Source: Promethearchaeota archaeon (GTDB lineage: Archaea > Asgardarchaeota > Lokiarchaeia > Sigyniarchaeales > SOKP01). Taken from it: 22,589 bases of DNA. Of this stretch, positions 343-18,149 are shown piece by piece. Made by a program: the position numbers and the translations under genes. The stretch's first letter is position 1; each line of letters opens with the position of its first letter. The notes under the pieces were generated by a model. It did no database searches. It was not told the DNA's origin and saw nothing but the letters and a program-made list of their open reading frames with translations. The DNA is taken from contig JAHLWP010000051.1 in NCBI GenBank assembly GCA_019057865.1, positions 1 to 22,589 of the forward strand. Reading direction: 5' to 3'.

Positions 343-3300
343 ATGGGAGAATTAGCAGATGAGACTGACGAGGAATTTAATAGTGGATTTCATGAGATGG
401 AGGAAGTAACGGATGAGGAGATTGATAAGGAATTTGATGAGCAATTTAATGAGGTGGAAGAGGAATATGAAAATATCGGCTCTCAAAGTACTGTATTAAT
501 GCATGAAAATCCCGAAATAGAAGGAGAAAATCAGGAAGAACTTCAAGCTGAAAGTGAGGAATATACTGAGGAGGAAGAGGAGTACCTAGAGAATGAGGAA
601 GAAGCAATAGAGATAGATCCAGAAGAATACGAAAATGACCAAGATCCTATTATTGATACCGAAGAGATAGAATTTGTTAGGGATATGGAAGAATTGGGGC
701 GCATGCTGAAAGAATATGATGAGAAGTTAGGCTATCCTGAAGAAGAAAATGATAATACTGCTTTTAATGCAGAGCAAGCTTATAGGGAAATTAAAGAAAG
801 AAATAGTAATAAAGAAGAAAAGGAAGAGGCCCAAGAATTAGAGGAACAAGAAAAAGAAATTACAGAAGATCAGAAGGAAGAGCATATTGAGGAAATACTT
901 TCTGGTGATGCACAAGGGGAAGATGTCAATGATACATCAGAAGAAGCAGAGATAGAGCCAGAAGAGTTTGATTATCTTTGGGAAAAATATGAACAGTATG
1001 AACAAGAAGGGAAGAATTCTGAAGAAATCAGTAATTTAATGCATGAGGCAGAAGAAACTTATAAACTCTTAAAAAATGTTGAAAAGCTCTATGAACAACA
1101 AGAAAAAGAAAAATTAAAGTCAATTGACCATGAAGATGAAGAAGATAACGATGATGTAAGAGAACAGATTGATCGAGTAGATGCAGTAGAATATTTTGTA
1201 GATTTTGAAGAAAAATTACACCAGCAAGGAAAATCTCAAGGAGAAATTGACGAGCAGGTGGAAGAAATTGCGAAGGATTTCTTCTTAAGTGAAATAGAAG
1301 AAAAACAACAAAATGAACAAGAAAAAGATGTGAGTGAAGAACTTAGAATCGAACAAGCTGGAACTGATGAAATAAACTCAGATCTAAAAGAACAGGAACA
1401 GATTAAACAAATCTCTGTTTATGATAACGATGACAATAGAAAAACTCATGAAGAAGTGGAAAAAAAAGAAGCAGAAGAAGAGATCAAAACAGAATTAAAT
1501 GATATAGAAACTGATGATGTGGAACCATATCACGAAAGAATCAATGAATCCATTGAGAAAGAAGACAAGCTAGAGAGTAAAGAAACAGAAGAAGAAGAAT
1601 ATAAAAAGCTTCAGCAATTATATCGCCAAGAAACTGGTAAAAGACCTATGTATGCTGGAACGGAGACAAAAGGATTTAACCAATGGTTAGAAAAACAAGA
1701 ATTAAAAACTAAAGAGTTAGAAGAGAAAGAACAAAAAAAGGAGAAATGGCAAAAGAAACTTAAAAACTGGATAGAAGGATCTAACGAAGAAGAGCTCAGC
1801 TCTGAACTTAAAGTAGTTTTGAAAGAGATACTTCAAAATTTTCAAGAATATGAAAAATTAGAAGAATTATATAAAAGATATGAAAAAGGAGAATTAACTG
1901 AAAAAAATAAAGAAGTGTTGAATTTCATTATAAACAAACTATTAAATATAAGCCCTATTCACTTACATTTATATTTGAATATAAGCGGATTTAAAGCGTA
2001 TTATCAAGAACATCATTGGTGGAATCCCGCGCTTATTAATGAAATAAAATATAAATTTCTCAGACATCTGTCCAAAAAATATGAAGTCTTAAAAAAACAC
2101 TCAAAAAATATATCTAAACTTAAACAACTTCATGCTAAGCACATTCGAAAATTAGTTGATAGACCACATTCAATCAAGGAGAATATTAAATTAACTCAGA
2201 ATAATTTGAAGGACTTTTTAAAGGAAAATTTGGAAAATATAAATGAATTGAATGAAAATCAGAAATCAATTTTAGTTGAAAATCGAAATTCAATGATTCA
2301 AGGGCAGAACTCAAAATTTTCTGAGGATGAAATTAGATTTTTTAAAAATCATAATATTAATTGGAGAATGTTAGGATCTAGATGGGATTGGGTTAAAAGA
2401 AACCTTTTGATTCCATTTTTCTTGGAGATTTTATATGTAAAGAATAATAGGGTTCCTAAGACTAAAGAAATTGAAAATTGGGGTTATGGACGATTTTTAA
2501 AAATTTTAAGAGAAAAATATAGCTTAACTTTCTCAAAACTTGTAGAAAAGGCGGGTATAGCCCCACGAAAAAGCTTGAAAAAAGAAAAAAATTTTTCGAA
2601 TGATGAGAAAAAATTTTTAATTAATCATGAAGTTAAAATTGAAAATTTAAATACAAGATGGGAATGGGTTAGACTAAATCCTGAATTAGCAATTGATTTT
2701 TATGAGGAAATTTTATTTCCGAAATATGGTCGAAGCCCCACTTCAAGAGAAATAAAAAAATTAGGTTATGGGCAATTTATTGAAATACTACGAGATATGG
2801 GATTAACCCTTTCAAATTTGGCTGAAAGAGCCGGTTTTAGACCAAGAAATTCTTATGAAAGGGTGATTAATTCAGATGACTTAACAGATAAAGAAATCGA
2901 GTTTCTGGAGCGTCATAACATCAAGCTTAGTGATTTGACATCTAGATGGTCCTGGTTAGATGATGATCCAGATCTAGCGATGAATTTCTTTAAAGAAGTA
3001 ATTTATCGACTGCATAATAAAGTTCCTACTTGGGATGAGATTGCTTATTCAAATTATTATAATTTTGTTCAAAAACTTAGTACTTTCAATCTAACATATC
3101 CAGAACTTATAAAATTATCAGGATTTGAACCAAATTATGAATTTTTAAATGAAAATGATAAGACGATCATATATGATTTGATGGAAAGATTTGTGAATGA
3201 ATATTTCGAATCAGGTCAAGAGATTTATCCTCCATCTTTATCGTATTTAGTTAAATACGGACCATTAAAGGTTAGTGATGCTACTTTCAGTCATTATGCA

Positions 3301-4887
3301 AAAGAATATTTAATAGGTAGATTTGGAGTTCAAGAAGGTGAAAAAATTTATTCAGAATTTTGGCCACATTTATCTGCTGGATTATCTAGTGAGAAAATAT
3401 CAATGGTTTACGATTATACTGAAGAATTCGTAAATAATTTTTTAGATTCTAAAAAATTGCCACTACCAATTATTCATATAACTAAACATTTAATTCCAAA
3501 TATTTCTAGTCATACATTTTCTAAATATGCTCAAGAATATCTTAATAAGCGATTTGGTGTTGTTAGAAGCCAGAATCTCTATGAGAAAATGTGGCCATAT
3601 GATCTTTTAGTAGCTAATACAGGAACTTTAGTTCACAGAATAATTAATGAACTTTTAACTATATATTTTAAAAATTATCAAGAAATTAAATATTTTAGTG
3701 TTCCCGTTATTTATCCTACAAGAAAACCTGATGGGTTAATACTTAAATCAAGGAAACTTATTTCATTACTTAAAGCAAATGAGAATATTTTACATAAAAT
3801 AAATTTAGATATTAATATCTTAAATAAGGTTAAAGCAATTGTTTTTGATTTTACCTCAGATGTTTCACAACGAAATATCATGGATAAGATTATTAAATAT
3901 CAACATCCTGATCTTTTCCTTTTTATTATCGGAGTTAGATGGTATTATGATATTCCATATTTAAAAGTTCCAGAAGATAGAGGTGTAATAGGCAAAAAAA
4001 AAATTAAAATTATTAGTATTGAGGATTTTTGTGAACTATTTTCAATACCTTTGGAATTAATTCAAGAATTGGAAAGTATATTAAAGTTGGCAATTGATCG
4101 GGATATTGATTCTTTAAGTAAAATAAGCCTTTTGGAAAATGAAGAGTTATATAATACAGATTCTCTGCACGCTGAGCTTATTCAAAATGGAAAAATCAAA
4201 GAAAATATTCAAGAATTTTTGGATCTAGGTTTGATTAATCATCCAATTAAGAATATTTTTACAAAATCAGAACTAGAATATATAGAGAGTTGTAGAAATA
4301 TTGATCATAAAATAGCTATTATTGATATTGAGACAACGGGTTTCAATCCATTGAAAGATAGTATAGTTGAAATAGGGATTGTTGAATTAGATTTAAGTAC
4401 AGGAGAAAAAAAGATTTTATTCAATTCAGTTGTTAAGGATTCAAATTACAATTCATCAAAATATTATAATAATCTCTTTTTGAAAGATATTAGTATAGAT
4501 CCTATAGAGATTGAAAAAGCAAGACCTTTAGAATTTTATAGAGACATCCTTCAATTGATCTTTAATTGCTATAAGATTACTGCTTATAATAATAGATTTG
4601 ATTTTAGATTTTTGGAAAATAGAGGTTTTAACATTCCAAGAAAATTAATGGATATAATGAATTTTTGTCAACGAAAAATACCTAAAGGAAATAGTCTTAA
4701 ATTTGAGGAAGTTTATCGATATTTTTATAATACTCCTCAAAATAAGATAAAAGAAATTTTATCCAATCCAAATTATGTTTCATTACATAGAGCAATTGAT
4801 GATGTAATTCATGAAACTGAGCTCCTCTTTTATTTAATTCAGGAATCTAATTTTCCATTAACTTATCAAAAAAAACTTTTTTTATAG
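343..4887 (+). CDS. Large multidomain protein: Glu-rich N-terminus, helical repeats, PD-(D/E)XK-like domain, C-terminal DEDDh 3'-5' exonuclease (DnaQ-like); true start may be 232
   Basis: 1514-aa ORF. ExoI motif IAIIDIETTG, ExoII AYNNRFD, ExoIII HRAIDD. GTLVH...RKPDG...VFDFT resembles a restriction-fold nuclease. Three ~92-aa and two ~78-aa internal repeats. Confidence 0.8.
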   Translation: MGELADETDEEFNSGFHEMEEVTDEEIDKEFDEQFNEVEEEYENIGSQSTVLMHENPEIEGENQEELQAESEEYTEEEEEYLENEEEAIEIDPEEYENDQDPIIDTEEIEFVRDMEELGRMLKEYDEKLGYPEEENDNTAFNAEQAYREIKERNSNKEEKEEAQELEEQEKEITEDQKEEHIEEILSGDAQGEDVNDTSEEAEIEPEEFDYLWEKYEQYEQEGKNSEEISNLMHEAEETYKLLKNVEKLYEQQEKEKLKSIDHEDEEDNDDVREQIDRVDAVEYFVDFEEKLHQQGKSQGEIDEQVEEIAKDFFLSEIEEKQQNEQEKDVSEELRIEQAGTDEINSDLKEQEQIKQISVYDNDDNRKTHEEVEKKEAEEEIKTELNDIETDDVEPYHERINESIEKEDKLESKETEEEEYKKLQQLYRQETGKRPMYAGTETKGFNQWLEKQELKTKELEEKEQKKEKWQKKLKNWIEGSNEEELSSELKVVLKEILQNFQEYEKLEELYKRYEKGELTEKNKEVLNFIINKLLNISPIHLHLYLNISGFKAYYQEHHWWNPALINEIKYKFLRHLSKKYEVLKKHSKNISKLKQLHAKHIRKLVDRPHSIKENIKLTQNNLKDFLKENLENINELNENQKSILVENRNSMIQGQNSKFSEDEIRFFKNHNINWRMLGSRWDWVKRNLLIPFFLEILYVKNNRVPKTKEIENWGYGRFLKILREKYSLTFSKLVEKAGIAPRKSLKKEKNFSNDEKKFLINHEVKIENLNTRWEWVRLNPELAIDFYEEILFPKYGRSPTSREIKKLGYGQFIEILRDMGLTLSNLAERAGFRPRNSYERVINSDDLTDKEIEFLERHNIKLSDLTSRWSWLDDDPDLAMNFFKEVIYRLHNKVPTWDEIAYSNYYNFVQKLSTFNLTYPELIKLSGFEPNYEFLNENDKTIIYDLMERFVNEYFESGQEIYPPSLSYLVKYGPLKVSDATFSHYAKEYLIGRFGVQEGEKIYSEFWPHLSAGLSSEKISMVYDYTEEFVNNFLDSKKLPLPIIHITKHLIPNISSHTFSKYAQEYLNKRFGVVRSQNLYEKMWPYDLLVANTGTLVHRIINELLTIYFKNYQEIKYFSVPVIYPTRKPDGLILKSRKLISLLKANENILHKINLDINILNKVKAIVFDFTSDVSQRNIMDKIIKYQHPDLFLFIIGVRWYYDIPYLKVPEDRGVIGKKKIKIISIEDFCELFSIPLELIQELESILKLAIDRDIDSLSKISLLENEELYNTDSLHAELIQNGKIKENIQEFLDLGLINHPIKNIFTKSELEYIESCRNIDHKIAIIDIETTGFNPLKDSIVEIGIVELDLSTGEKKILFNSVVKDSNYNSSKYYNNLFLKDISIDPIEIEKARPLEFYRDILQLIFNCYKITAYNNRFDFRFLENRGFNIPRKLMDIMNFCQRKIPKGNSLKFEEVYRYFYNTPQNKIKEILSNPNYVSLHRAIDDVIHETELLFYLIQESNFPLTYQKKLFL

Positions 4888-5001
4888 AAAAATATTCTTA
4901 ATCTTTCTTAAGAAAAAATTCTTATTACTTCTATTATTAGGAAAAATTAATTAAGAAAAATTAAGAAGAGGAAATATAAGAAAAGTAATGGTTGAAGAAA
5001 A

Positions 5002-7941
5002 ATGATCGATTACGATCCACAAAAAATTGAAGAAAAATGGCAAAATAGATGGGAAAGCGATAAAATCTTTAAAGTAACTGAAAATTCGAAGAAAAAAAGT
5101 TATTATGTACTAGAGATGTATCCATACCCCTCTGGAAAGCTCCACATGGGACATTTAAGAAATTATACTATTGGAGATTGCATTGCTAGGTATAAAAGAA
5201 TGCAAGGTTTCAATGTTCTTTATCCAATGGGTTATGATTCCTTTGGTATGCCAGCAGAATCAAAATGTATATCACATTATGCTGTATAATGCAGCCATTG
5301 AAGAGGGAGCTAACCCAGAAGTTTGGACAAATAGTAATATTGAAATAATGTGTTCACAGCAAAAAAGGCTTGGTTTATCATATGATTGGGATCGAGTTTT
5401 ATGGTCCCACCAGAAGAGTTATTACAAATTTGACCAATGGTTCTTTTTGAAAATGTATGAACGTGGTTTGGCTTATAGACAAGAGAGCTATGTAAATTGG
5501 TGCCCAAAATGTGCAACTGTACTTGCTAATGAACAAGCAAGCGGAGGAAGATGTTGGCGTTGTAATACTGTTGTAGATATAAAATTACAACAAACATGGT
5601 TCTTAAAAATCAGAGAGTACGCAGATCAACTCCTTAAAGGCTTAGAAACTTTAGAATGGCCAGAAAATGTTAAAACAATGCAGCGTAAATTAAATCAATG
5701 CCTCTTCGGCATATGAGCGCCCTTGGATTGGTTATTCTGAAGGAACTGTCATTATGTTCCAAATAGTTGGAGAAAATAAGACTATTAATATCTTCACAAC
5801 TCGACCTGATACTGTTTATGGAGTATCTTTTATGGTCTTTGCCCCAGAGCATCCTTGGGTTCGTGAGTGGATCCAAGGAACTGAATATGAAGAGGATTTC
5901 AAAAAACTTTACGATGAAATAATTCATCAAGGGAGATATGAGAGAACTGATATTGAAATTGAAAAGAAGGGAATATTCACTGGAAAATATTGTTTCCATC
6001 CATTGATAAAAGATTTAAAAATTCCAATCTATATTGGTAACTTCGTATTTTGTATCAGTTTCTGATATAAAAGGAAAATTTACGAATATGGAGCAGGAGC
6101 AGTAATGGCTGTACCAGCACACGACCAATTTTGTAAGAATTCCTTACAAAGGTTATAGAGATTTTGAATTTGCGAGAAAATACCATATTCCGATAAAACA
6201 AGTTATACAACCTTTTGCTTATAAATTACCTGCTGATACAAATAAATGGAATCGTGCATATGAAGGAGACGGATTTTTAATTAATTCCTCAAGTAATAAA
6301 AGTGATTTCAATAACCTTGATAATCGCAATGCAATAGAAAAAATCACAAATAGATTAGAAGAAATTGATGCAGGTTATGGAACGGTCAACTATAAATTAC
6401 GCGACTGGGGGATATCCCGCCAAAGATATTGGGGCTGTCCGATACCAATAATATATTGCAAAAATTGTGGTAGAGTGCCTGTTCCTTATGAAGATCTTCC
6501 TGTTTCACTCCCAGATGATGTTGATTTCTCAAAAGGAGGGAATCCCTTAGAAACTAGTGAGAGTTTCATAAATGTGAAATGTCCTAAATGCGAAAAATTA
6601 GGAGCGAAACGTGAAACTGATACCATGGATACATTTGTAGATAGTTCATGGTATTTCTTTAGATATTGTGATCCTGATTCGAGAGATATACCTTATAGAA
6701 AAAAAATCTTAGACTATTGGGGTAAAGGTACCTTTCTTGTTGATCAATATATAGGTGGAATAGAACATGCGATATTACATTTGATATATGCTAGATTTTG
6801 GACAAAAGTAGCGAGAGATCTTGAATTGCATAGTTTTGATGAACCATTCAGGCGTTTATTGACACAGGGGATGATTAATAAGGCGCATCCTTTTTGTACT
6901 AACTGTAATAGACACATAATGAGAGCAGAACTTAAGGAGATGATGTGCAAACGATGTGGGAATAAAAATTTAACATTGAAATCTGTAAAAATGAGTAAAA
7001 GCTATGGAAATACTGTAGAGCCTAAGGAAATAGTAGATAAATATGGAGCTGATGCTGCTAGGTTTTTTATTTTATTCGGAGCAAGTCCTGAATCTGGCTT
7101 AGAATGGTCAGATGAAGGTGTTGGGTTTGCAAATAAATTCATAAAAAACACATTTTCAATGCTAGTTGATCCTCCTGAGATTAAAAGAAAAGAAAAAACT
7201 ATTCGAGATACTCTTGTAAAATATATTTTAAACAAAACGATAAAGCTAGTTACTAATAATTTTGAAAAAATATCAATTAGAGACGCTGTAAACAATATAA
7301 TACAATTCGCTTCTGAATTTAATAAATATAAAAATGAAGGTGTAGTTGAAGAAATTTTTGAAGAATGTAGAGAAAAATTACTTTTAATACTCCATCCAAT
7401 TATCCCTCATATCACTGAAGAAATCTGGGAAATCATTGGTAAAAAAGGATTTATTAGTTTAGCTTCATGGCCTTCTTACAATAAAGAATTAATTACTCTT
7501 GAAAATGATTTCAAATGGAAGTTAATAAACAATATTTTAGATGATATTAACAATATTAAAACTGTTATAAGAAAAGAAGAATTAGATAAAATTTCAATTA
7601 TTATAGCGGATGAATGGAAATATAGATTCTATAAACAGCTATTATCATTGATTAATGAAACCAAAAATCAAGGTGAAATTATAAAAACACTCATGCAAAA
7701 AGATTACTTAAAGCCTCATAGTAAGTTCATAAGTCAAATCATCACAAAAGTTTTAAAAAATGTAGGAAAGTATCCAAAATTCACTCTTACAACAAATGAG
7801 GAATACAATTTTTTTCAGGATATTAAATCAATGATCATGAAAAAATATAACTGCGAGGTTGAAATTTTAATTGAGAAAGATTCGAATGCACAAAAAGCAA
7901 TTCAATCTCTTCCAGGAAAACCTGCTATTATCATTACATAA
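5002..7941 (+). CDS. leuS: Leucine--tRNA ligase interrupted by four putative BHB micro-introns; join(5002-5259,5288-5688,5723-6047,6078-6128,6157-7941), 939 aa
   Basis: Motifs [12 protein letters not shown] (HIGH), [20 protein letters not shown] (CP1 editing), [37 protein letters not shown] and KMSKS. Joined exons total 2820 nt (940 codons) with no internal stop. Confidence 0.93.
5260..5287 (+). other. Putative BHB-type mRNA micro-intron 1 of leuS (28 nt)
   Basis: Removal restores FGMPAE^NAAI. Central helix GCAG(5254-57)/CUGU(5282-85), bulges AA^U and AU^A, intron stem CAAAAUGU/ACAUUAUG (7 of 8 paired). Exon-exon helix is relaxed. Confidence 0.85.
5689..5722 (+). other. Putative BHB-type mRNA micro-intron 2 of leuS (34 nt)
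   Basis: Removal restores TMQRNWIG (codon AA^T). Central helix GCGU(5683-86)/GCGC(5717-20), bulges AA^A and CC^U, exon helix CAAUGCA/UGGAUUG (6 of 7 paired), intron hairpin AUGCC-UCUUC-GGCAU. Confidence 0.88.
6048..6077 (+). other. Putative BHB-type mRNA micro-intron 3 of leuS (30 nt, in frame, contains TGA)
   Basis: Removal restores GNFV^IYEYGAG. Intron stem 6049-58/6062-71 (10 pairs), central helix UUCG/AGGA (3 of 4 paired), bulges UA^U and AA^A, long exon-exon helix 6028-40/6080-92. Confidence 0.82.
6129..6156 (+). other. Putative BHB-type mRNA micro-intron 4 of leuS (28 nt)
   Basis: Removal restores PAHDQ^RDFEFA. Central helix GACC(6123-26)/GGUU(6151-54), bulges AA^U and AU^A, perfect 8-bp intron stem UUUGUAAG/CUUACAAA. 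Confidence 0.9.
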
Positions 7942-8120
7942 GATCTTCTTAAAAGTTTTTTGAATAAAAGTAATTTATTAAATTACATCTTTCATATATT
8001 TCTTGATTCTAATTTATTAACTTAAAATTAACTAAATTATTTTAAATGGAAAAATATTAAATCTTAATAGAATTAGGGTTAAATTAAATCCCATTAATAT
8101 CAAATAAACCATACAAACAT

Positions 8121-11285: not shown

Positions 11286-11813
11286 TTGGAAAACATAATT
11301 ATGAACTATACACGAGAAGAATTGATTCAATCCGAGGCGACCATGAATCAAGTTAGAAATTCAATCTACCACTTAGCACGTTTTATGGATAAAAATGGAG
11401 TATCAGACATAAAAGAGAGATTAAGAAGGATGGGAAAAAATATCGCTCGGACATACATTAACTATTGGAAGCCCACACAAGTGGTTAATATTTCTAACTT
11501 AAAGGATTATATTACGACAATATATCAAAAAGTTCTTGGGAGCTATGTTTCAATAGAAATTAATGAGAGTGAGAAATTAGTAATAGTAAGAGATTCTAAA
11601 TGTTCATTATGTAAATATCATTACGAAGATATTGAAGTAGCTGGTTGTGAAATAATTATTGGTATGGTGTCTGAGCTTATCACTCAAATTAACTTTATTT
11701 CAAAGGATTCTTCATCAGTTTTTTTAGAACCATTTGAAGTAAAAGAGTCTCGAACCCATGGAAATAAATCATGTATTCAAATATATAAATATAAGATCGG
11801 AGGGAGCAATTGA
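11286..11813 (+). CDS. V4R/Bet3-like domain protein
   Basis: LRRMGKNIA helix and a CSLC...C..IIG...C pattern typical of V4R/HNOX/TRAPP-like folds. Start may be the ATG at 11301. Confidence 0.6.
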   Translation: MENIIMNYTREELIQSEATMNQVRNSIYHLARFMDKNGVSDIKERLRRMGKNIARTYINYWKPTQVVNISNLKDYITTIYQKVLGSYVSIEINESEKLVIVRDSKCSLCKYHYEDIEVAGCEIIIGMVSELITQINFISKDSSSVFLEPFEVKESRTHGNKSCIQIYKYKIGGSN

Positions 11814-13285
11814 AAATGGGGGCATTTCAGTGGTTAATGAAAAAAATAACAAAAACTTTTGGTCGTTCTACTAATGCACTATTTTATACACTCCTTTATA
11901 GGGAAATACTCAAAGAAATTAATGAAATAACGAAAAATGAAGAAGATAGTTTAATAATTCTGAGAGAAATGGGAAAAAGAGCGGCTTATGAATCATGTGA
12001 AAGGCATTCAGCAATCTTTAAATTTATGCCAGGAAATCCAAAAAAGATTTTGGATTATTTTGAAATTCTTTGGGTTGTAGTTTTTGGAAAAGAATTAGAT
12101 GATTATTCTTATGAGGAAATCCCGAAAGAAGAATCAAAATATAATGATTATATTCTTAAAATTAGCAAATGTCCAATTTGTAGTGGCTATGGTCAAGATA
12201 ATGAGGATACATTTAATTTTATGAAATTAAAAGATAAAGAGACCGAAGGAATGGCTTGTGGACTCTGCGGAATGTTAGAAAGTGTAGCTAACTTTATATT
12301 AAAAGTAAAAAGGAATGATTATCGAATTGGTATCGTTGAGCAAAAATGTATTACTAGAGGTGATGATTGCCTTCAATTCATTTGTAAAATATATGACTAT
12401 AAAGAATGGCAAGAACATACAGCAGTAAGAATTCAAGATAAAATTTCTTCTCATATTCGTTTCGAAGAAGGCATAGAAGAAGAACTTGTTCAAGAAACTA
12501 AGTTAGATATTATAGACAAACTTCAAGATGTTATATCAATAGATAAATTAGAAGAAATCCTTGATGAACCATTGGAAGGCATTAAGGAACGGGTTGCTGA
12601 TATTATTCGAGATAAATTAAATATGGAACCAGAACATTTTTTCGATTATTTTAGAAATTATGAAGATGATATGATAAGAATTATTGGATACTTAGGAACA
12701 CATCTTTTAAATGAATATGGAGGTTTATTAGAAAAATCTCTTAAGAATGAAACAGTTGCGAAAATATTTGGTTATCTCTATAAACAGATTAAAGATATGA
12801 CTCTTTTATTTATTCCATTAGATGTAATACGAGATTATAATAAATTATTAGTAAGCTTTTTAGATGGATTGGCTCCGGTAGAAATGGTTGAAAATATTAA
12901 ACTTTTTTCTGCTAAAGATACAATTAATTATCTGTTTGAAGGAGTTAAAATGGCGTTTGAAAACTTAGGCATTGATTTTTCCGAATTAAAGGAAAATGTT
13001 TGGGAAGAATTAAAGAAAGAACGGGAGGATGAGTTAATCCCCTCTGAAGCTTCTGCGATTGATAGAACTCGAGAGAATGTTCCAAAAATAATTAATCTTA
13101 TTCAAGAGATTTTAATGATTATTACCGATATTTTTACACTCCCTATAAGGGTTTTAATATCTGAAAGCCATTATGGATTAAAAACTGCTATAAATTCAGT
13201 TGTTTCTGAAGAGGAAGGACTATATGGTTCAATAAGAGAACGATTTGATAACATCTTTGACCAAATTCAAGAAATAAGACGATAA
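11810..13285 (+). CDS. V4R domain protein with C-terminal helical extension
   Basis: LREMGKRAA, CPIC, CGLCGMLE and EQKCITRGDDCLQF (V4R signature). Overlaps the stop of the upstream gene by 4 nt. Confidence 0.7.
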   Translation: MKMGAFQWLMKKITKTFGRSTNALFYTLLYREILKEINEITKNEEDSLIILREMGKRAAYESCERHSAIFKFMPGNPKKILDYFEILWVVVFGKELDDYSYEEIPKEESKYNDYILKISKCPICSGYGQDNEDTFNFMKLKDKETEGMACGLCGMLESVANFILKVKRNDYRIGIVEQKCITRGDDCLQFICKIYDYKEWQEHTAVRIQDKISSHIRFEEGIEEELVQETKLDIIDKLQDVISIDKLEEILDEPLEGIKERVADIIRDKLNMEPEHFFDYFRNYEDDMIRIIGYLGTHLLNEYGGLLEKSLKNETVAKIFGYLYKQIKDMTLLFIPLDVIRDYNKLLVSFLDGLAPVEMVENIKLFSAKDTINYLFEGVKMAFENLGIDFSELKENVWEELKKEREDELIPSEASAIDRTRENVPKIINLIQEILMIITDIFTLPIRVLISESHYGLKTAINSVVSEEEGLYGSIRERFDNIFDQIQEIRR

Positions 13286-13490
13286 ATCTTTAACTTTTTA
13301 TATTTAAATTTATTACTTGTTTTAAAATATTTTTTCACTTTTTTCCTACGTTTATAATAATATAAAATCTGCTTTTTTAAAGAAAAATAATTTGTAAAAG
13401 TGAAGAACTTTTCGTTAATTAATTTTATATAAATTTGAGATAATAATTATTATTAATTAATTCAAAATCTTAATAAAAAGAGAAAATTGC

Positions 13491-16241
13491 ATGGTTTTAA
13501 AATTGAAAACTACTGAAAAAAAAGTTATCATAAAATTGTCAGCTGTATTAGTACTTACTACTATTGTGTTTACGATTCTTTCAGTTCCTTTAATTAGCAT
13601 TATTGCTCCGCTAGGAGATATTCTCTTTCCTGGTACTGGTTTATGGCGGGTTCCTGGTGAACTTCCTGAGTATGAAGTATTATATGTTAAGGGATTGAAT
13701 AGTTCGGTGACGGTTTATCGAGATGAATGGGGGATCCCTCATATCTATGCATCTAATGAAAATGATTTGAGTTTTGCATTAGGTTATGTCCATGCTCAAG
13801 ATAGACTGTTCCAAATGGATTTAGCAAGGCGACAAGTAAGAGGTAAGCTGTCTGAAGTAGTAGGTAGTTTAGCTCTAGAAGAAGACAAATTTAATCTTGC
13901 AATGGGAATGGAATATTGGGCCAATCAAACTTTTCAGGAAGCTATTAGAATGCAGAAATTGGGAGAAATTGATTTTTTAGATTCAATTTATCGCTATGCT
14001 GACGGAGTGAATTATTTTATCAATACTCATAAAGATGAATTACCAATAGAATACGCTATTTTAGGATTTAAGCCAACAAAATGGACACCATTAGACACAT
14101 TTTGTTTTAACAAATATATGAGTAAAATGCTTACTTGGCAATATTATGACCTATATAGATTACAAACTCTAGATGCTCTTGGTGAAAACAATTTTACTGA
14201 ATTATTTATGTCAACTTATGGACAAATTCCTATATGCCCAAATTATGGTATTTTTAATGATAGTTCAGAACTCTCTTATAATGGTGGGCCATTAAAGATA
14301 AGTTCAAATGTCATAAATACTGTTTCTAACTTTTTGAAAAAGGTTGATAGTATTCCCTCAGAAAAAACATTGATGGATCTACAAGAGCAAAACATTATAG
14401 GCTCAAATAATTGGGTTGTTGATGGCGTAAAAAGTAGCACAGGAATGCCAATTTTATGTAACGATATGCATTTAGCATGGAATATGCCTGGAATATGGTA
14501 TGAAGCACACTTAGCTGATTTAAGTACTGGTTTAAGTGTATATGGATTTACACTAGCAGGAGTCAATATTCCTATAGTGGGTCATACTGATTATGTAGCA
14601 TGGGGTATTACTAATACTGGATATGACGTAATGGACTGGTTTTATTATGAGGAAGTGGACTCTGATCATTATATTTATAATGGTATAATAACAGAGTATA
14701 CAACAAGAACCTATACTATAAAAATAAAGGATCAAGGCTCTAAAAAATTTACAGTCAAGGAAACTGTACACGGCCCCGTTCTTAATGATTTCCTAGATGA
14801 TGATATACCTGATTCTTTAGATACAGAAAAAATAGTGTTAGCACCTAAATGGACAGGAAATAATGTAACTACTGAGTTTTTAGCATTGTATGGATTTAAT
14901 CATGCCAAAAATAGAATTCAATTTAATCAAGCTTTGGCTCATTTCCTTACTCCATCTTCCAATTTTATTTATGCTGATATTGAAGGAACAATCGCAATTA
15001 GACCCACTGGGTTAGTACCTATTAGAGATGATAATTTAATTCCACCCTGGCATTTTGGCAATGGAACCTTACCATATAATGGATCAAATGGTGAAGGTGA
15101 GTGGATTGGTTATGTTCCTTTTGATGCCTTACCAAATACAGAAAATCCATCACAACATTATTTAGCATCAGCAAATCAAATAGTTGCTGGACCTAACTAT
15201 ATAAATTATTCACTTCAGAACAGTTATGCGGCAGGTTATCGGGCAAGAAGGATTAATGAATTACTAAATAATTCTCCAGATGGGACAGTTGGTATAGAAA
15301 AAATGAAGGAATTACAGCTTGATGTTAAATCTACACCAGCTAGAGCCTTTGTTCCATATCTTATTAATACAACTGAAGGGTTGCCCTCCTCTCAAAAAAC
15401 ACCAATAATATTAGATATTTTAATTCAATTGAAGAATTGGGATTATGATATGGATAAGGATTTAGCGGCACCAACAATTTATCGAAAATGGCGAGATTAT
15501 TATCAGGATTACACTTTTGATGATGAATTTGAAGCTGCTGGAGCACCAATACAACCTCAATTGAATGTTTTAGAGAAATTAACTAGAGATGAGCCAGATT
15601 CAAAATGGTTTGATGATATTAACACACCTGAAACAGAGAATAGAACTAATATAATCATTAAAGCCTTAAATGCTACAGTCGATTTTCTAGTAGAATATTA
15701 TGGCACTAATGATGTATCTGCATGGAGATGGGGTGATATACATCAATATAGTTTCCCTCATATTGTTCCCGGATTTAATTCTTTAAATAAAGGACCATTT
15801 GAAGGAGATGGAGAAGGTTATACAATTAATCCGTCAAGAGTGAGTATAAGAGATGGATTAGGTTTGGCTCGGGGTGGAGCTTCAGAGCGAATGATAATAG
15901 ATTTCAGTGATTTGAAGAATTCTCTTAGTGTTATTCCATCTGGACAGAGAGGTATATCTAATTCCAAGCATTATTCTGATCAATTAGAGGAATTATTTCT
16001 AAAGGGAAAATATCATCGACACTATTTTTATAATAATAAAGAAGATTTTCCAAGGAATCATATTGAATCTCAAATCAAGTTTATACCGGGAAAAAACACT
16101 GATTTAGCAATTTTCATGACGACATTCCTAATAATAGGTTCTACGATTGGTATCATAAGCGTTATTGTAGTTATATGGTTCAAAAGAGAGCAAATTTTTA
16201 TAAGATTAAACAAATTAAAATTGAAGCGAAGAGGTGACTAA
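13491..16241 (+). CDS. Penicillin acylase family Ntn-hydrolase (peptidase S45), membrane anchored
   Basis: VYRDEWGIPHIYA, GYVHAQDRLFQMD, G^SNNWVV nucleophile Ser, NDMHL and SANQ motifs. Hydrophobic segments at both ends. Confidence 0.93.
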   Translation: MVLKLKTTEKKVIIKLSAVLVLTTIVFTILSVPLISIIAPLGDILFPGTGLWRVPGELPEYEVLYVKGLNSSVTVYRDEWGIPHIYASNENDLSFALGYVHAQDRLFQMDLARRQVRGKLSEVVGSLALEEDKFNLAMGMEYWANQTFQEAIRMQKLGEIDFLDSIYRYADGVNYFINTHKDELPIEYAILGFKPTKWTPLDTFCFNKYMSKMLTWQYYDLYRLQTLDALGENNFTELFMSTYGQIPICPNYGIFNDSSELSYNGGPLKISSNVINTVSNFLKKVDSIPSEKTLMDLQEQNIIGSNNWVVDGVKSSTGMPILCNDMHLAWNMPGIWYEAHLADLSTGLSVYGFTLAGVNIPIVGHTDYVAWGITNTGYDVMDWFYYEEVDSDHYIYNGIITEYTTRTYTIKIKDQGSKKFTVKETVHGPVLNDFLDDDIPDSLDTEKIVLAPKWTGNNVTTEFLALYGFNHAKNRIQFNQALAHFLTPSSNFIYADIEGTIAIRPTGLVPIRDDNLIPPWHFGNGTLPYNGSNGEGEWIGYVPFDALPNTENPSQHYLASANQIVAGPNYINYSLQNSYAAGYRARRINELLNNSPDGTVGIEKMKELQLDVKSTPARAFVPYLINTTEGLPSSQKTPIILDILIQLKNWDYDMDKDLAAPTIYRKWRDYYQDYTFDDEFEAAGAPIQPQLNVLEKLTRDEPDSKWFDDINTPETENRTNIIIKALNATVDFLVEYYGTNDVSAWRWGDIHQYSFPHIVPGFNSLNKGPFEGDGEGYTINPSRVSIRDGLGLARGGASERMIIDFSDLKNSLSVIPSGQRGISNSKHYSDQLEELFLKGKYHRHYFYNNKEDFPRNHIESQIKFIPGKNTDLAIFMTTFLIIGSTIGIISVIVVIWFKREQIFIRLNKLKLKRRGD

Positions 16242-16685
16242 ATGAAAATTAAAAATTATGAGATTAAAATAAGTCCAGAGACAAGAACTTTTATAGTATC
16301 TATTTTATTTACAATGCTTATTACTTATATTCTAACGTTTATATACGTCTGGCAATTAATTATAATTCCTGGAATATTAGCTGGAGTTTTTAACAAAACA
16401 ATTAGAAGAGGAATATATAGTGGTGCCTTGGGAGTTTCAATAATTTGGGTTATATTTATGATCTATAGGATTATTGAACAAAATGCTTATATTAATTTGG
16501 ATCAATTTGCCGGGTTAATATTTGGTGGATTAGGTTATGGATGGGTTATTTTTGTTCTTATATCATTATTTGGGGTATTATTTGGTGCTTTAGGCGGTGC
16601 AATTGGAAGTAGTATATCTATTCTAGTAAAACTAAGACTTGAAAGAGGTGAATCAGAACTCCCAAAACCAGAAAAACTATCTTAA
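16242..16685 (+). CDS. Small integral membrane protein
   Basis: 147 aa with about 4 hydrophobic Gly-rich segments. Directly abuts the acylase stop codon. Confidence 0.75.
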   Translation: MKIKNYEIKISPETRTFIVSILFTMLITYILTFIYVWQLIIIPGILAGVFNKTIRRGIYSGALGVSIIWVIFMIYRIIEQNAYINLDQFAGLIFGGLGYGWVIFVLISLFGVLFGALGGAIGSSISILVKLRLERGESELPKPEKLS

Positions 16686-16697
16686 ATTAAATTAATA

Positions 16698-18149
16698 TTA
16701 TTTTATCTGAGGAATATCTTCTGCTGATTTTAATTTTTCTGAGGAATATATATCATAAAACCAATCAATGATATATTGAAAGAAAAACCGTTCTCGTAAA
16801 ACATCATAATGAGATTTTTCTTTTAAACTTGTTAATTTGGCAATATCTTCTGCGTTTAATTTTCCGTCAGCGATTAAATTCATTCGAGCTTTATATTGAT
16901 CAATCATCTTTATAGGTCGCAAAATTGCTGAAATTGCATTTGAAAATTTATCTATTAAATCCTGAAAATCAATTTCATAAAAATCTCGATGATAACCATC
17001 CTCGAATAAAAAATTTTCTACATGGCTAATAATTGACTTTTTTTTTGGATAATTAATTTTTTCTTCTTTACTTAAAGTCTCTACAAGATAATCAACAATT
17101 TTTCTAATTGTATCAGCTTTAATATGGTAATTTTGTAATTCTTTTTCCAGTTTTTCAATGAATTGATTCTTTAAAAATTCTTTGAATTTAATTATAATAG
17201 CTTTATTCTGGTTAACATCAGTACAGATTTCAATTATTTCTCCTTTAGGAGTTGAATATGTAAAACCTAAACCCTGTGGACCAATCCCTCCCATTAAAAT
17301 CATTGATAAATTATAAAAATTATAATTATTTTCAGCTAAAATTTTATCTGTATTTTTAAAAATGTTCTTAGGAGATACTAAATGTCTTTTAATTTCACTA
17401 TGTTCATGTTCTTCATCAGCATCATAATAAAATACATTATATTTATATACAACACTAAATTCAATAAATTTATTCTCTTTTAATATAATATCTCTCTTTT
17501 CTTTATTTATTCGATCTCTGTAGAATAAATAATTTTTATTAAAATCGTCAATAAATCGTTTAATTGGGCTTAAATATCTAATACTAAGACCATATATAGT
17601 ATACTGGTTAAAAAAAATATTCTTGATATAATCCATTAATCCATCTCGATTTGGAAAATAAGTAAGGGGATTATTAATGAAATAATCATAAAGATCTTGA
17701 GGCATAACCTTATAAACATACAATATGAATGAATCAGATACCTTTCCAAAAAAGTCATTTAAGTTTGACAAAAATAATTTATCTTCTTTAACACTTTCTA
17801 ATATCTTTTTTTCATCTTCATTTAATTCTTTCTCTAATAAATTAAACTTATTACAAAATCTTAAAACATCTATTATATCACCTAAAGCAGAAGTTTGATA
17901 TCCTTCAGATATCCTTTCAGTACAACTTAAAAGTAACAATGAGATTAGCTTGAATCTATTAGGTATTTTTTTTACATCTATAAAAATATCAAAGTTAATT
18001 GATTTATCAATTAATTTTTTGAAAATCTTAAATTTTCCATGTTTAAGACTTTCAGAAAGGCCATTATAGAATTCTTTCTCGATTTGCGTCCTATCTTTTA
18101 AATTTGAAATTCTTGATATATAATTTTCAAATAAATGATTTGAAGGCAT
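16698..18149 (-). CDS. Hypothetical protein
   Basis: 483-aa ORF with a conserved-looking MGGIGPQGLGFTYSTPKGE segment. No family recognised. Confidence 0.75.
   Translation of the reverse strand: MPSNHLFENYISRISNLKDRTQIEKEFYNGLSESLKHGKFKIFKKLIDKSINFDIFIDVKKIPNRFKLISLLLLSCTERISEGYQTSALGDIIDVLRFCNKFNLLEKELNEDEKKILESVKEDKLFLSNLNDFFGKVSDSFILYVYKVMPQDLYDYFINNPLTYFPNRDGLMDYIKNIFFNQYTIYGLSIRYLSPIKRFIDDFNKNYLFYRDRINKEKRDIILKENKFIEFSVVYKYNVFYYDADEEHEHSEIKRHLVSPKNIFKNTDKILAENNYNFYNLSMILMGGIGPQGLGFTYSTPKGEIIEICTDVNQNKAIIIKFKEFLKNQFIEKLEKELQNYHIKADTIRKIVDYLVETLSKEEKINYPKKKSIISHVENFLFEDGYHRDFYEIDFQDLIDKFSNAISAILRPIKMIDQYKARMNLIADGKLNAEDIAKLTSLKEKSHYDVLRERFFFQYIIDWFYDIYSSEKLKSAEDIPQIK

Follow-up and report, generated by a model that had tools for sequence, protein, structure and literature searches.

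Predicted bulge–helix–bulge micro-introns in a recombinant leucyl-tRNA synthetase gene of a Promethearchaeota archaeon

The DNA analysed here (the window) is a stretch of 22,589 nucleotides (nt) on the forward strand of contig JAHLWP010000051.1 (GCA_019057865.1), from a Promethearchaeota archaeon. The source genome (G000) is an Asgard metagenome-assembled genome (MAG) of 4.26 Mb with 29% GC and 99.7% completeness. At 5002–7941 (+) lies a bacterial-type gene for leucyl-tRNA synthetase (leuS, encoding LeuRS), which is split into five open pieces by four discrete inserts of 28, 34, 30 and 28 nt. Joined, the pieces 5002–5259, 5288–5688, 5723–6047, 6078–6128 and 6157–7941 give 2,820 nt: 939 codons and a stop, with no internal stop codon. 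The matches of the exons to the TIGR00396 (leuS_bact) profile are collinear (in exon order 1–83, 84–218, 220–323, 17 residues, and 341–809), and the HMGH, TTRPDT, AHDxRD and KMSKS motifs are all intact in the spliced LeuRS, the C-terminus of which is archaeal-like. A first-pass annotation of the window, made from the sequence alone, had described four inserts of 28–34 nt and, on their removal, one open reading frame (ORF) of 939 amino acids (aa) with all catalytic motifs; the positions, the lengths, the stop-free frame and the motifs all proved correct.

The exon–intron junctions were set from protein collinearity and alignment alone, blind to RNA structure. Introns 1, 2 and 4 each allow a single position, and for intron 3 a shift of 1 nt leaves the product unchanged. 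Exon 1 (5002–5259; this and all following parts of the gene are on the + strand) covers codons 1–86, carries HMGH and ends in GCAGAA; intron 1 (5260–5287, 28 nt, phase 0) interrupts the protein at PAE|NAA. Exon 2 (5288–5688) supplies codons 87–219 and 2 further nt, and is followed by intron 2 (5689–5722, 34 nt), which in phase 2 splits the Asn codon of QR(N)WIG as AA|T. The CP1 editing domain, with TTRPDT, starts in exon 3 (5723–6047), after which intron 3 (6048–6077, 30 nt, phase 0), with in-frame stops inside it, falls within NFV|IYE. Exon 4 (6078–6128) is a micro-exon of 51 nt that encodes 17 residues; it is 94% identical to the sister genome G012 (isolate YT5_1216). Intron 4 (6129–6156, 28 nt, phase 0) lies in HDQ|RDF, and exon 5 (6157–7941) encodes the rest of CP1, KMSKS, the anticodon-binding and C-terminal domains and the stop. 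All four sites fall within the most strongly conserved motifs of LeuRS (conservation averages 0.94 versus 0.79, P = 0.0016).

At each junction the RNA can adopt a bulge–helix–bulge (BHB) layout, which was scored as follows: the 4 nt before the 5′ bulge pair with the 4 nt before the 3′ bulge (central helix, H), both bulges are of 3 nt, and an intron stem (h′) begins right after the 5′ bulge. For introns 1–4, respectively, 4/4, 4/4, 3/4 (one G·A) and 4/4 pairs form in H, and 7, 5, 10 and 8 pairs in h′; at equally spaced random positions of the genome, the corresponding chance is P = 1.8e-4, 1.2e-3, <1.7e-5 and 1.2e-4. In intron 1, H joins 5254–5257 (GCAG) to 5282–5285 (CUGU), the bulges are 5258–5260 (AA|U) and 5286–5288 (AU|A), and the stem pairs 5261–5268 with 5274–5281 with one A·A; the outer helix is weak. 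Intron 2 pairs 5683–5686 (GCGU) with 5717–5720 (GCGC) between bulges at 5687–5689 (AA|A) and 5721–5723 (CC|U), and has a stem of 5690–5695 with 5711–5716, an apical GC hairpin of 5698–5702 with 5708–5712, and an outer helix of 5676–5682 with 5724–5730. The central helix of intron 3, with three pairs and the G·A, is formed by 6042–6045 (UUCG) and 6072–6075 (AGGA), with bulges at 6046–6048 (UA|U) and 6076–6078 (AA|A), a stem of 6049–6058 with 6062–6071 and a long outer helix of 6028–6040 with 6080–6092. In intron 4, 6123–6126 (GACC) pairs with 6151–6154 (GGUU), the bulges are 6127–6129 (AA|U) and 6155–6157 (AU|A), the stem is 6130–6137 with 6143–6150, and the outer helix is weak.

Every predicted cut falls between the second and third nucleotide of its bulge, and cutting there yields the 939-codon frame; this is the position stated as the rule for the pre-mRNA of crenarchaeal cbf5 (PMC2738675). 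The geometry claimed at all four junctions by the first-pass annotation was thus borne out for the 3-nt bulges and the cut positions, and the 4-bp helix falls one pair short in intron 3. In minimum-energy folds, helix, bulge and hairpin appear directly for introns 1 and 4 (z = −2.5 for intron 4), and intron 3 forms its long exon–exon helix together with the intron hairpin (z = −5.3). Introns 1 and 4 have the relaxed HBh′ form, not the canonical hBHBh′ form. The relaxed form is accepted only by (αβ)2 or ε2 endonucleases, and Asgard EndA is of the (αβ)2 type, with an L1 loop that confers broad specificity (PMC5829648). Two EndA-family paralogues (contigs C71, region 81890–82114, and C69, region 38574–38822; PF01974, 104.6 and 70.5 bits) and one RtcB (contig C75, 110910–112217; PF01139, 561 bits) are encoded in the genome.

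We consider it highly probable that the four inserts are BHB introns of a protein-coding pre-mRNA that is spliced by EndA and RtcB, with cleavage and ligation in vivo as predicted steps. Each insert would fold with its upstream exon into a 4-bp helix, two flanking 3-nt bulges and a hairpin inside the intron. A heteromeric (αβ)2 EndA would then cut between the second and third nucleotide of each bulge, and RtcB would join the exons into a single mRNA of 939 codons for a bacterial-type LeuRS; the introns of 28–34 nt would probably be released as small circles. A repeat or mobile-element origin of the inserts was rejected, as blastn-short found no other copy in the genome, and a search of window positions 4800–8100 against Rfam returned nothing significant (one CRISPR-DR match, E = 0.46, below the gathering score).

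The inserts do not stem from faulty assembly, as independent metagenome contigs carry them without gaps. Gap-free contigs from three other studies span the inserts, one of which, 2,024 nt long and with 2 differences, comes from a marine-sediment run of 2015, and the inserts are also found in three related loci designated L188, L189 and L101. Contigs of intron-less relatives diverge exactly at 5259, resuming AATGCAGC, and others match exon 4 alone (6078–6128); because they break exactly there, the intron borders are independently confirmed. An apparent 177-nt insertion in the leuS of MAG DZ2M.348 (L098) was set aside: it contains no introns but a duplication that arose in scaffolding and includes a run of N.

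Selection on the spliced frame could be measured against a diverged lineage. A protein search with only the 5′ part of the gene, which is foreign to this species (see below), returned a single close relative, at 93% identity: L101, a contig of 13.7 kb (ENA ERZ23499174), in which the giant gene upstream is again present and leuS was called in four pieces. Its nucleotide identity to the window is 88–95% over 5011–7110 and 55–62% thereafter, and it has all four introns at identical sites. As both lineages carry all four, all of the divergence between them accrued while the introns were there. The 645 spliced codons compared show 95 synonymous and 56 non-synonymous differences (synonymous divergence (dS) of 0.31, non-synonymous divergence (dN) of 0.037, ratio of dN to dS (omega) of 0.12), and no stops or indels. 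The amino-acid changes fall in variable columns (mean conservation of 0.61 versus 0.82; none of 20,000 random draws was as low). These patterns show that the predicted spliced frame was kept functional over a substantial divergence, under strong purifying selection with the introns present. Further members of the intron-bearing lineage were sought, but family genomes and JGI metagenome contigs gave at most 74% identity each, and only L101 and the chimeric strains described below were found.

The introns themselves differ between the window and L101 at 11 of 120 sites (9%), around one third of the synonymous rate. One change is compensatory: C5701T and G5709A in L101 turn a C–G pair of the intron 2 hairpin into U–A. 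Three others replace a wobble pair by a Watson–Crick pair (T5285C, G·U to G–C in H of intron 1; G5717A, U·G to U–A in intron 2; and T5691C, U·G to C–G), two of them in central helices, and C5696T (C–G to U·G) keeps a pair of the minimum-energy stem of intron 2. Five changes lie in loops or bulges, including A5269G, C5704T and T6059C in loops and C5721T in a bulge; A5694T, in intron 2, is the sole change that does not fit the strict stem. T6059C is the only change in intron 3, and intron 4 is identical in L101, L188 and L189. This covariation comes from two lineages only and is of modest power.

The same comparison bears on the possibility that each piece is translated by itself to form a split LeuRS of the kind known in Aquifex, or that the inserts are artefacts of assembly or sequencing. 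Gene callers do output separate products of 95, 139–145, 132 and 488–518 aa. However, exon 4 encodes only 17 residues, and exon 5 has no in-frame start for 76–106 codons, yet those codons are constrained: omega between the window and L101 is 0.2 across the 115 codons that lie downstream of an intron but ahead of the first in-frame ATG, GTG or TTG. As they remain constrained without a start of their own, these codons are translated as the continuation of the upstream exon. The inserts are, moreover, gap-free in four assemblies, for which different assemblers were used, and recur in a lineage that has diverged by 8–12%. We give this explanation almost no credence.

Alternatively, ribosomes might hop over the inserts and leave the RNA uncut, by the translational bypassing known from T4 gene 60 and from byp elements in Magnusiomyces mitochondria. 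As short hairpins, the inserts resemble byp elements in size, but take-off and landing codons mismatch at all sites (GAA versus UAU before AAU, GUA versus AAA, and CAA versus UAU), and intron 2, which CGU precedes, splits a codon in phase 2. The conserved and co-varying feature is, furthermore, the 4-bp helix with its two 3-nt bulges, which bypassing does not need. Bypassing is accordingly very improbable.

The history of the gene differs between its two parts. G000 and G012 are 93% identical at the median protein, but codons 1–334 of the window LeuRS are only 67% identical to G012. From around 6972 on, the window DNA is around 91% identical to G012 (translated comparison), with a dS of 0.055 over the final 294 codons. 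Omega for the 3′ part of leuS is 0.15–0.2. In trees, the N-terminal and middle parts of the window protein stand apart from G012, and the C-terminal part is sister to it. Synteny is divided in the same way: the upstream flank and leuS 5′ end of G012 map to contig C73 of the source genome, and the leuS 3′ end with 10 kb downstream maps to the window contig. A three-way comparison at 866 informative sites, in which around nine in ten upstream sites match L101 and nearly all downstream sites match G012, places the crossover in exon 5 at 7039–7059 (+), between nt 1918 and 1938 of the spliced coding sequence, just after KMSKS.

On C73, at 12022–13038 (+), lies the remnant of the native leuS 5′ part: an uninterrupted 339 codons, 94% identical to the N-terminus of G012, to which it is sister in the trees, with an omega of 0.13 against G012. 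The remnant ends in ...GNFVIYEYGALCD*, inside what is exon 4 of the window gene, and 3.8 kb of unrelated DNA (with an HhH-GPD glycosylase and an MBL-like ORF) follows it; no overlap was found between the end of C73 and the start of contig C49. Judged from these comparisons, the window leuS is a recombinant, to which an L101-like lineage contributed codons 1 to around 640, all four introns included, and in which the 3′ third is native. A 5′ segment from a deep-branching congener, together with the giant gene upstream of it, replaced the native 5′ part. Since the intron-bearing segment came in by recombination, the four introns arrived together, and were not gained singly in this species.

An assembly chimera was considered as the origin of this mosaic and rejected, because the same joint of 5′ and 3′ parts is present in four assemblies and because L189, which comes from the same sample as L101, has a 5′ part that is window-like and not L101-like. 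The chimeric exon-5 ORF occurs in assemblies from NCBI (one), ENA (two) and Logan (one). In L189, the 5′ part is 99–100% identical to that of the window, and the lineage switch lies around 50 nt earlier, at 6987–7000. Window positions 5061–6810 are 99–100% identical to L189, while the native flanks differ by 3–5%, and the crossover points differ. This suggests that the imported 5′ segment spread recently among strains that had already diverged, and recombination at the leuS locus is recurrent.

The window gene is not the only LeuRS gene of this genome. An intact archaeal-type LeuRS is encoded on contig C1 at 28378–31242 (+), as a 967-aa frame with a TIGR00395 score of 936 bits against a cut-off of 648.5, and the window gene is, by its homology, a second LeuRS paralogue of bacterial type and not the sole one of the cell. 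Of 15 congeners, 12 have the archaeal-type enzyme; it was not found in G012 (99% complete) and only rarely in the order's other families. The bacterial type is nearly universal there: 38 of 41 relatives retain it, also where the archaeal type is present. The first-pass annotation had called leuS essential and implied that there was no second enzyme, which is not supported, given the intact gene on C1 and the remnant on C73. It had also named, as one half of a case against splicing, an intact leuS elsewhere; such a gene exists, in the form of the archaeal-type enzyme. What survives of its proposal is the splicing of several introns from one mRNA, which the motif geometry, the retention in L101, the omega of 0.12, the largely structure-compatible intron changes and the presence of EndA and RtcB support, without the essentiality.

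Several observations weigh against the splicing of a functional leuS mRNA. No RNA run was found that contains window positions 5002–6400, and two metatranscriptome runs from a related study contain next to none of its sequence words. A GC hairpin competes with the BHB of intron 2 and, in the minimum-energy fold, enlarges its 5′ bulge. The exon–exon outer helix (h), good in introns 2 and 3, is weak in introns 1 and 4 (0–2 adjacent pairs), and the central helix of intron 3 contains a G·A mismatch. Our own genome-wide scan, in which ORFs were merged by deleting 12–150 nt and BHB pairs were scored against a parallel-pairing decoy, showed no excess (825 real versus 816 decoy at the strict threshold, contigs C1 to C26). 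BHB geometry without fixed junctions is therefore a weak predictor in an AT-rich genome, and homology-based tests were used instead. Finally, the archaeal-type LeuRS could make the window leuS dispensable, codons 1–620 differ from L189 by 1.5 synonymous and 6.5 non-synonymous changes (8 sites; omega of around 1, without statistical power), and strain variants of the window leuS give 7 synonymous and 10 non-synonymous changes. Current constraint on this particular chimera is unproven.

These last points would favour a view in which the introns were real in the donor and the window copy, recently disabled or no longer needed, is a relic that drifts while the archaeal-type LeuRS does the work; recombination also broke up the native leuS, of which the C73 remnant is left. 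Yet the window, L188 and L189 are all free of stops, frameshifts and indels over 939 codons, and, apart from a single bulge or wobble site, these three chimeras have identical and intact introns. Populations with flanks that are 3–5% different have retained the chimera, its 3′ part has the low omega given above, and relatives with the archaeal-type enzyme retain the bacterial type as well. Omega is, as a rule, inflated at very low divergence, which also counts against a relic. We regard it as unlikely, and prefer the reading of the window gene as a spliced second LeuRS.

Elsewhere in the lineage, the four window inserts are without counterpart in the relatives having leuS (38 of 41; 24 congeners) and in the family genomes (120 of 134). 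The leuS of those relatives is a single frame of around 930 aa or is interrupted elsewhere by different inserts. Further genera of the family have leuS inserts of around 30 nt after codon 79, near codons 133–143 (in G123, G142 and some metagenome contigs) and after codon 538 (in G064), each with 4/4 pairs in H. The codon-79 intron (GYD|SFG), of 29–31 nt, mostly in frame and with stop codons inside it, is common to several genera (carriers L074, L079 to L085, L088, L089, L128, L138 and L147). Across its 13 distinct sequences, 95.5% of cells are paired, as against 37–52% with the partners slid. Compensatory change is seen in four pairs, and none of 500 shuffles reaches the covariation score. leuS has been hit by such introns again and again.

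When 340 kb of G012 were compared with G000 without the use of any motif, one species-specific insert was found among 256 orthologues. This insert, of 28–29 nt at around 11315–11342 (−) of contig C60, lies in a zinc alcohol dehydrogenase (ADH)-like gene (KRCGI|CGSDVHM) and is absent from G012; it forms a perfect BHB (GUGG / AAU / 9-bp hairpin / CCAU / AAU). The reverse comparison of G000 with G012 found no species-specific insert in 331. As species-specific mRNA introns are rare, four in one gene need an explanation by recombination. ARAGORN found only 27 tRNA genes in the genome, 12 of them with introns (11–1,582 nt), and many more probably escape recognition because they contain multiple introns. 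These numbers fit the heavy interruption of tRNA genes reported for Asgard archaea in a study that did not treat mRNAs (bioRxiv 10.64898/2026.10.13.758758).

Among known systems, the closest is the intron in the crenarchaeal pre-mRNA of cbf5 (pseudouridine synthase); according to PMC2738675 and the reference lists of later EndA papers, no other intron of an archaeal mRNA is confirmed. Our literature search found no report of BHB introns in Asgard mRNAs. The cbf5 intron is likewise a BHB intron, cut by a hetero-oligomeric EndA and gained or lost among relatives (Watanabe 2002; Yoshinari 2006; Yokobori 2009, PMC2738675). It differs in being single, in a gene of thermophilic Crenarchaeota, whereas the four leuS introns, with their 51-nt micro-exon, are in a mesophilic Asgard archaeon and in an unrelated gene, for an aminoacyl-tRNA synthetase. 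It is also confirmed, whereas the leuS introns are predicted from DNA, and the leuS introns, unlike that of cbf5, arrived jointly by recombination of a gene segment. The tRNA introns of Asgard archaea share with leuS the motif, the size range and the presumed enzymes (EndA and RtcB), and their gains recur at many positions; excision from an mRNA, by contrast, must restore the reading frame and competes with translation.

Eukaryotes splice the HAC1 and XBP1 mRNAs without a spliceosome: a small intron (26 nt in XBP1) bounded by stem–loops is cut by IRE1, the exons are joined by tRNA ligase or RtcB, and the removal shifts the frame. The likeness to leuS is that a protein endonuclease cuts a small mRNA intron and tRNA ligase or RtcB joins the exons; the endonuclease and its recognition motif are different, and splicing in HAC1 and XBP1 is stress-regulated and concerns a single intron. 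The position of the leuS introns in conserved motifs, and the movement of the segment between lineages by recombination, resemble the homing of group I introns and inteins. The leuS introns (28–34 nt), however, encode no endonuclease and show no sign of site-specific homing, and what was transferred is a gene segment of more than 2 kb.

Tentatively, and with less than even confidence, we raise the possibility that mRNA splicing by EndA and RtcB is routine in Promethearchaeota, and that BHB micro-introns sit preferentially in the most conserved coding motifs because homologous recombination of the flanking gene segments spreads them between lineages. If true, this would be a nuclease-free analogue of homing, and the window a transfer caught in the act, with four introns moved at once and two crossovers in two populations. 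New here are four introns with a diverged intron-bearing orthologue, which allowed a direct test of selection, together with a micro-exon and a joint entry by recombination. In a member of the Asgard group, which is closest to eukaryotes, a housekeeping-type gene of 2.8 kb would be divided into five exons, one of them of 51 nt. Three questions become testable: how a prokaryote without a nucleus prevents the translation of unspliced mRNA; how such introns are gained and spread (here, by recombination of a whole gene segment); and whether the archaeal ancestors of eukaryotes had multi-intron protein genes before the spliceosome. Annotation pipelines report such genes as fragments of 95–518 aa, which distorts estimates of the gene content and completeness of Asgard genomes.

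Other features of the locus concern its neighbourhood. Upstream of leuS, at 343–4887 (+), a protein of 1,514 aa is encoded, with a Glu-rich N-terminal half and three repeats of around 100 aa (...RW.WV... modules). Its C-terminus is weakly 3′–5′ exonuclease-like (the only Pfam match, to PF16473, is below the cut-off), and it has no orthologue in 40 relatives, only domain-level matches of at most 40%. The gene travels with the intron-bearing 5′ part of leuS, and from 2311 on it is 80–88% identical to L101 at the nucleotide level. Against L189 it is a mosaic, with 99% identity at 3061–3560 and 80–88% at 3561–4810.

A dispersed repeat of 120–130 nt, with copies that are 82–92% identical, occurs at C73:16705–16836 at the contig end, terminally on C66 and close to the end of C58, with further copies on C33, C50 and C61. 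This repeat is a probable cause of the assembly breaks and a possible sign of a mobile element beside the leuS remnant. In another genome of the genus (G093), the leuS of locus L069 is without around 100 codons (G012 residues 270–372) and has around 100 nt in their place, at around 2040–2141; the genome has N bases, and the gap may be masking, not biology. Downstream in the window, around 3.4 kb at 13300–16700 have no counterpart in the syntenic G012 contig C25, in which position 17757 joins window 13300 to 16695.

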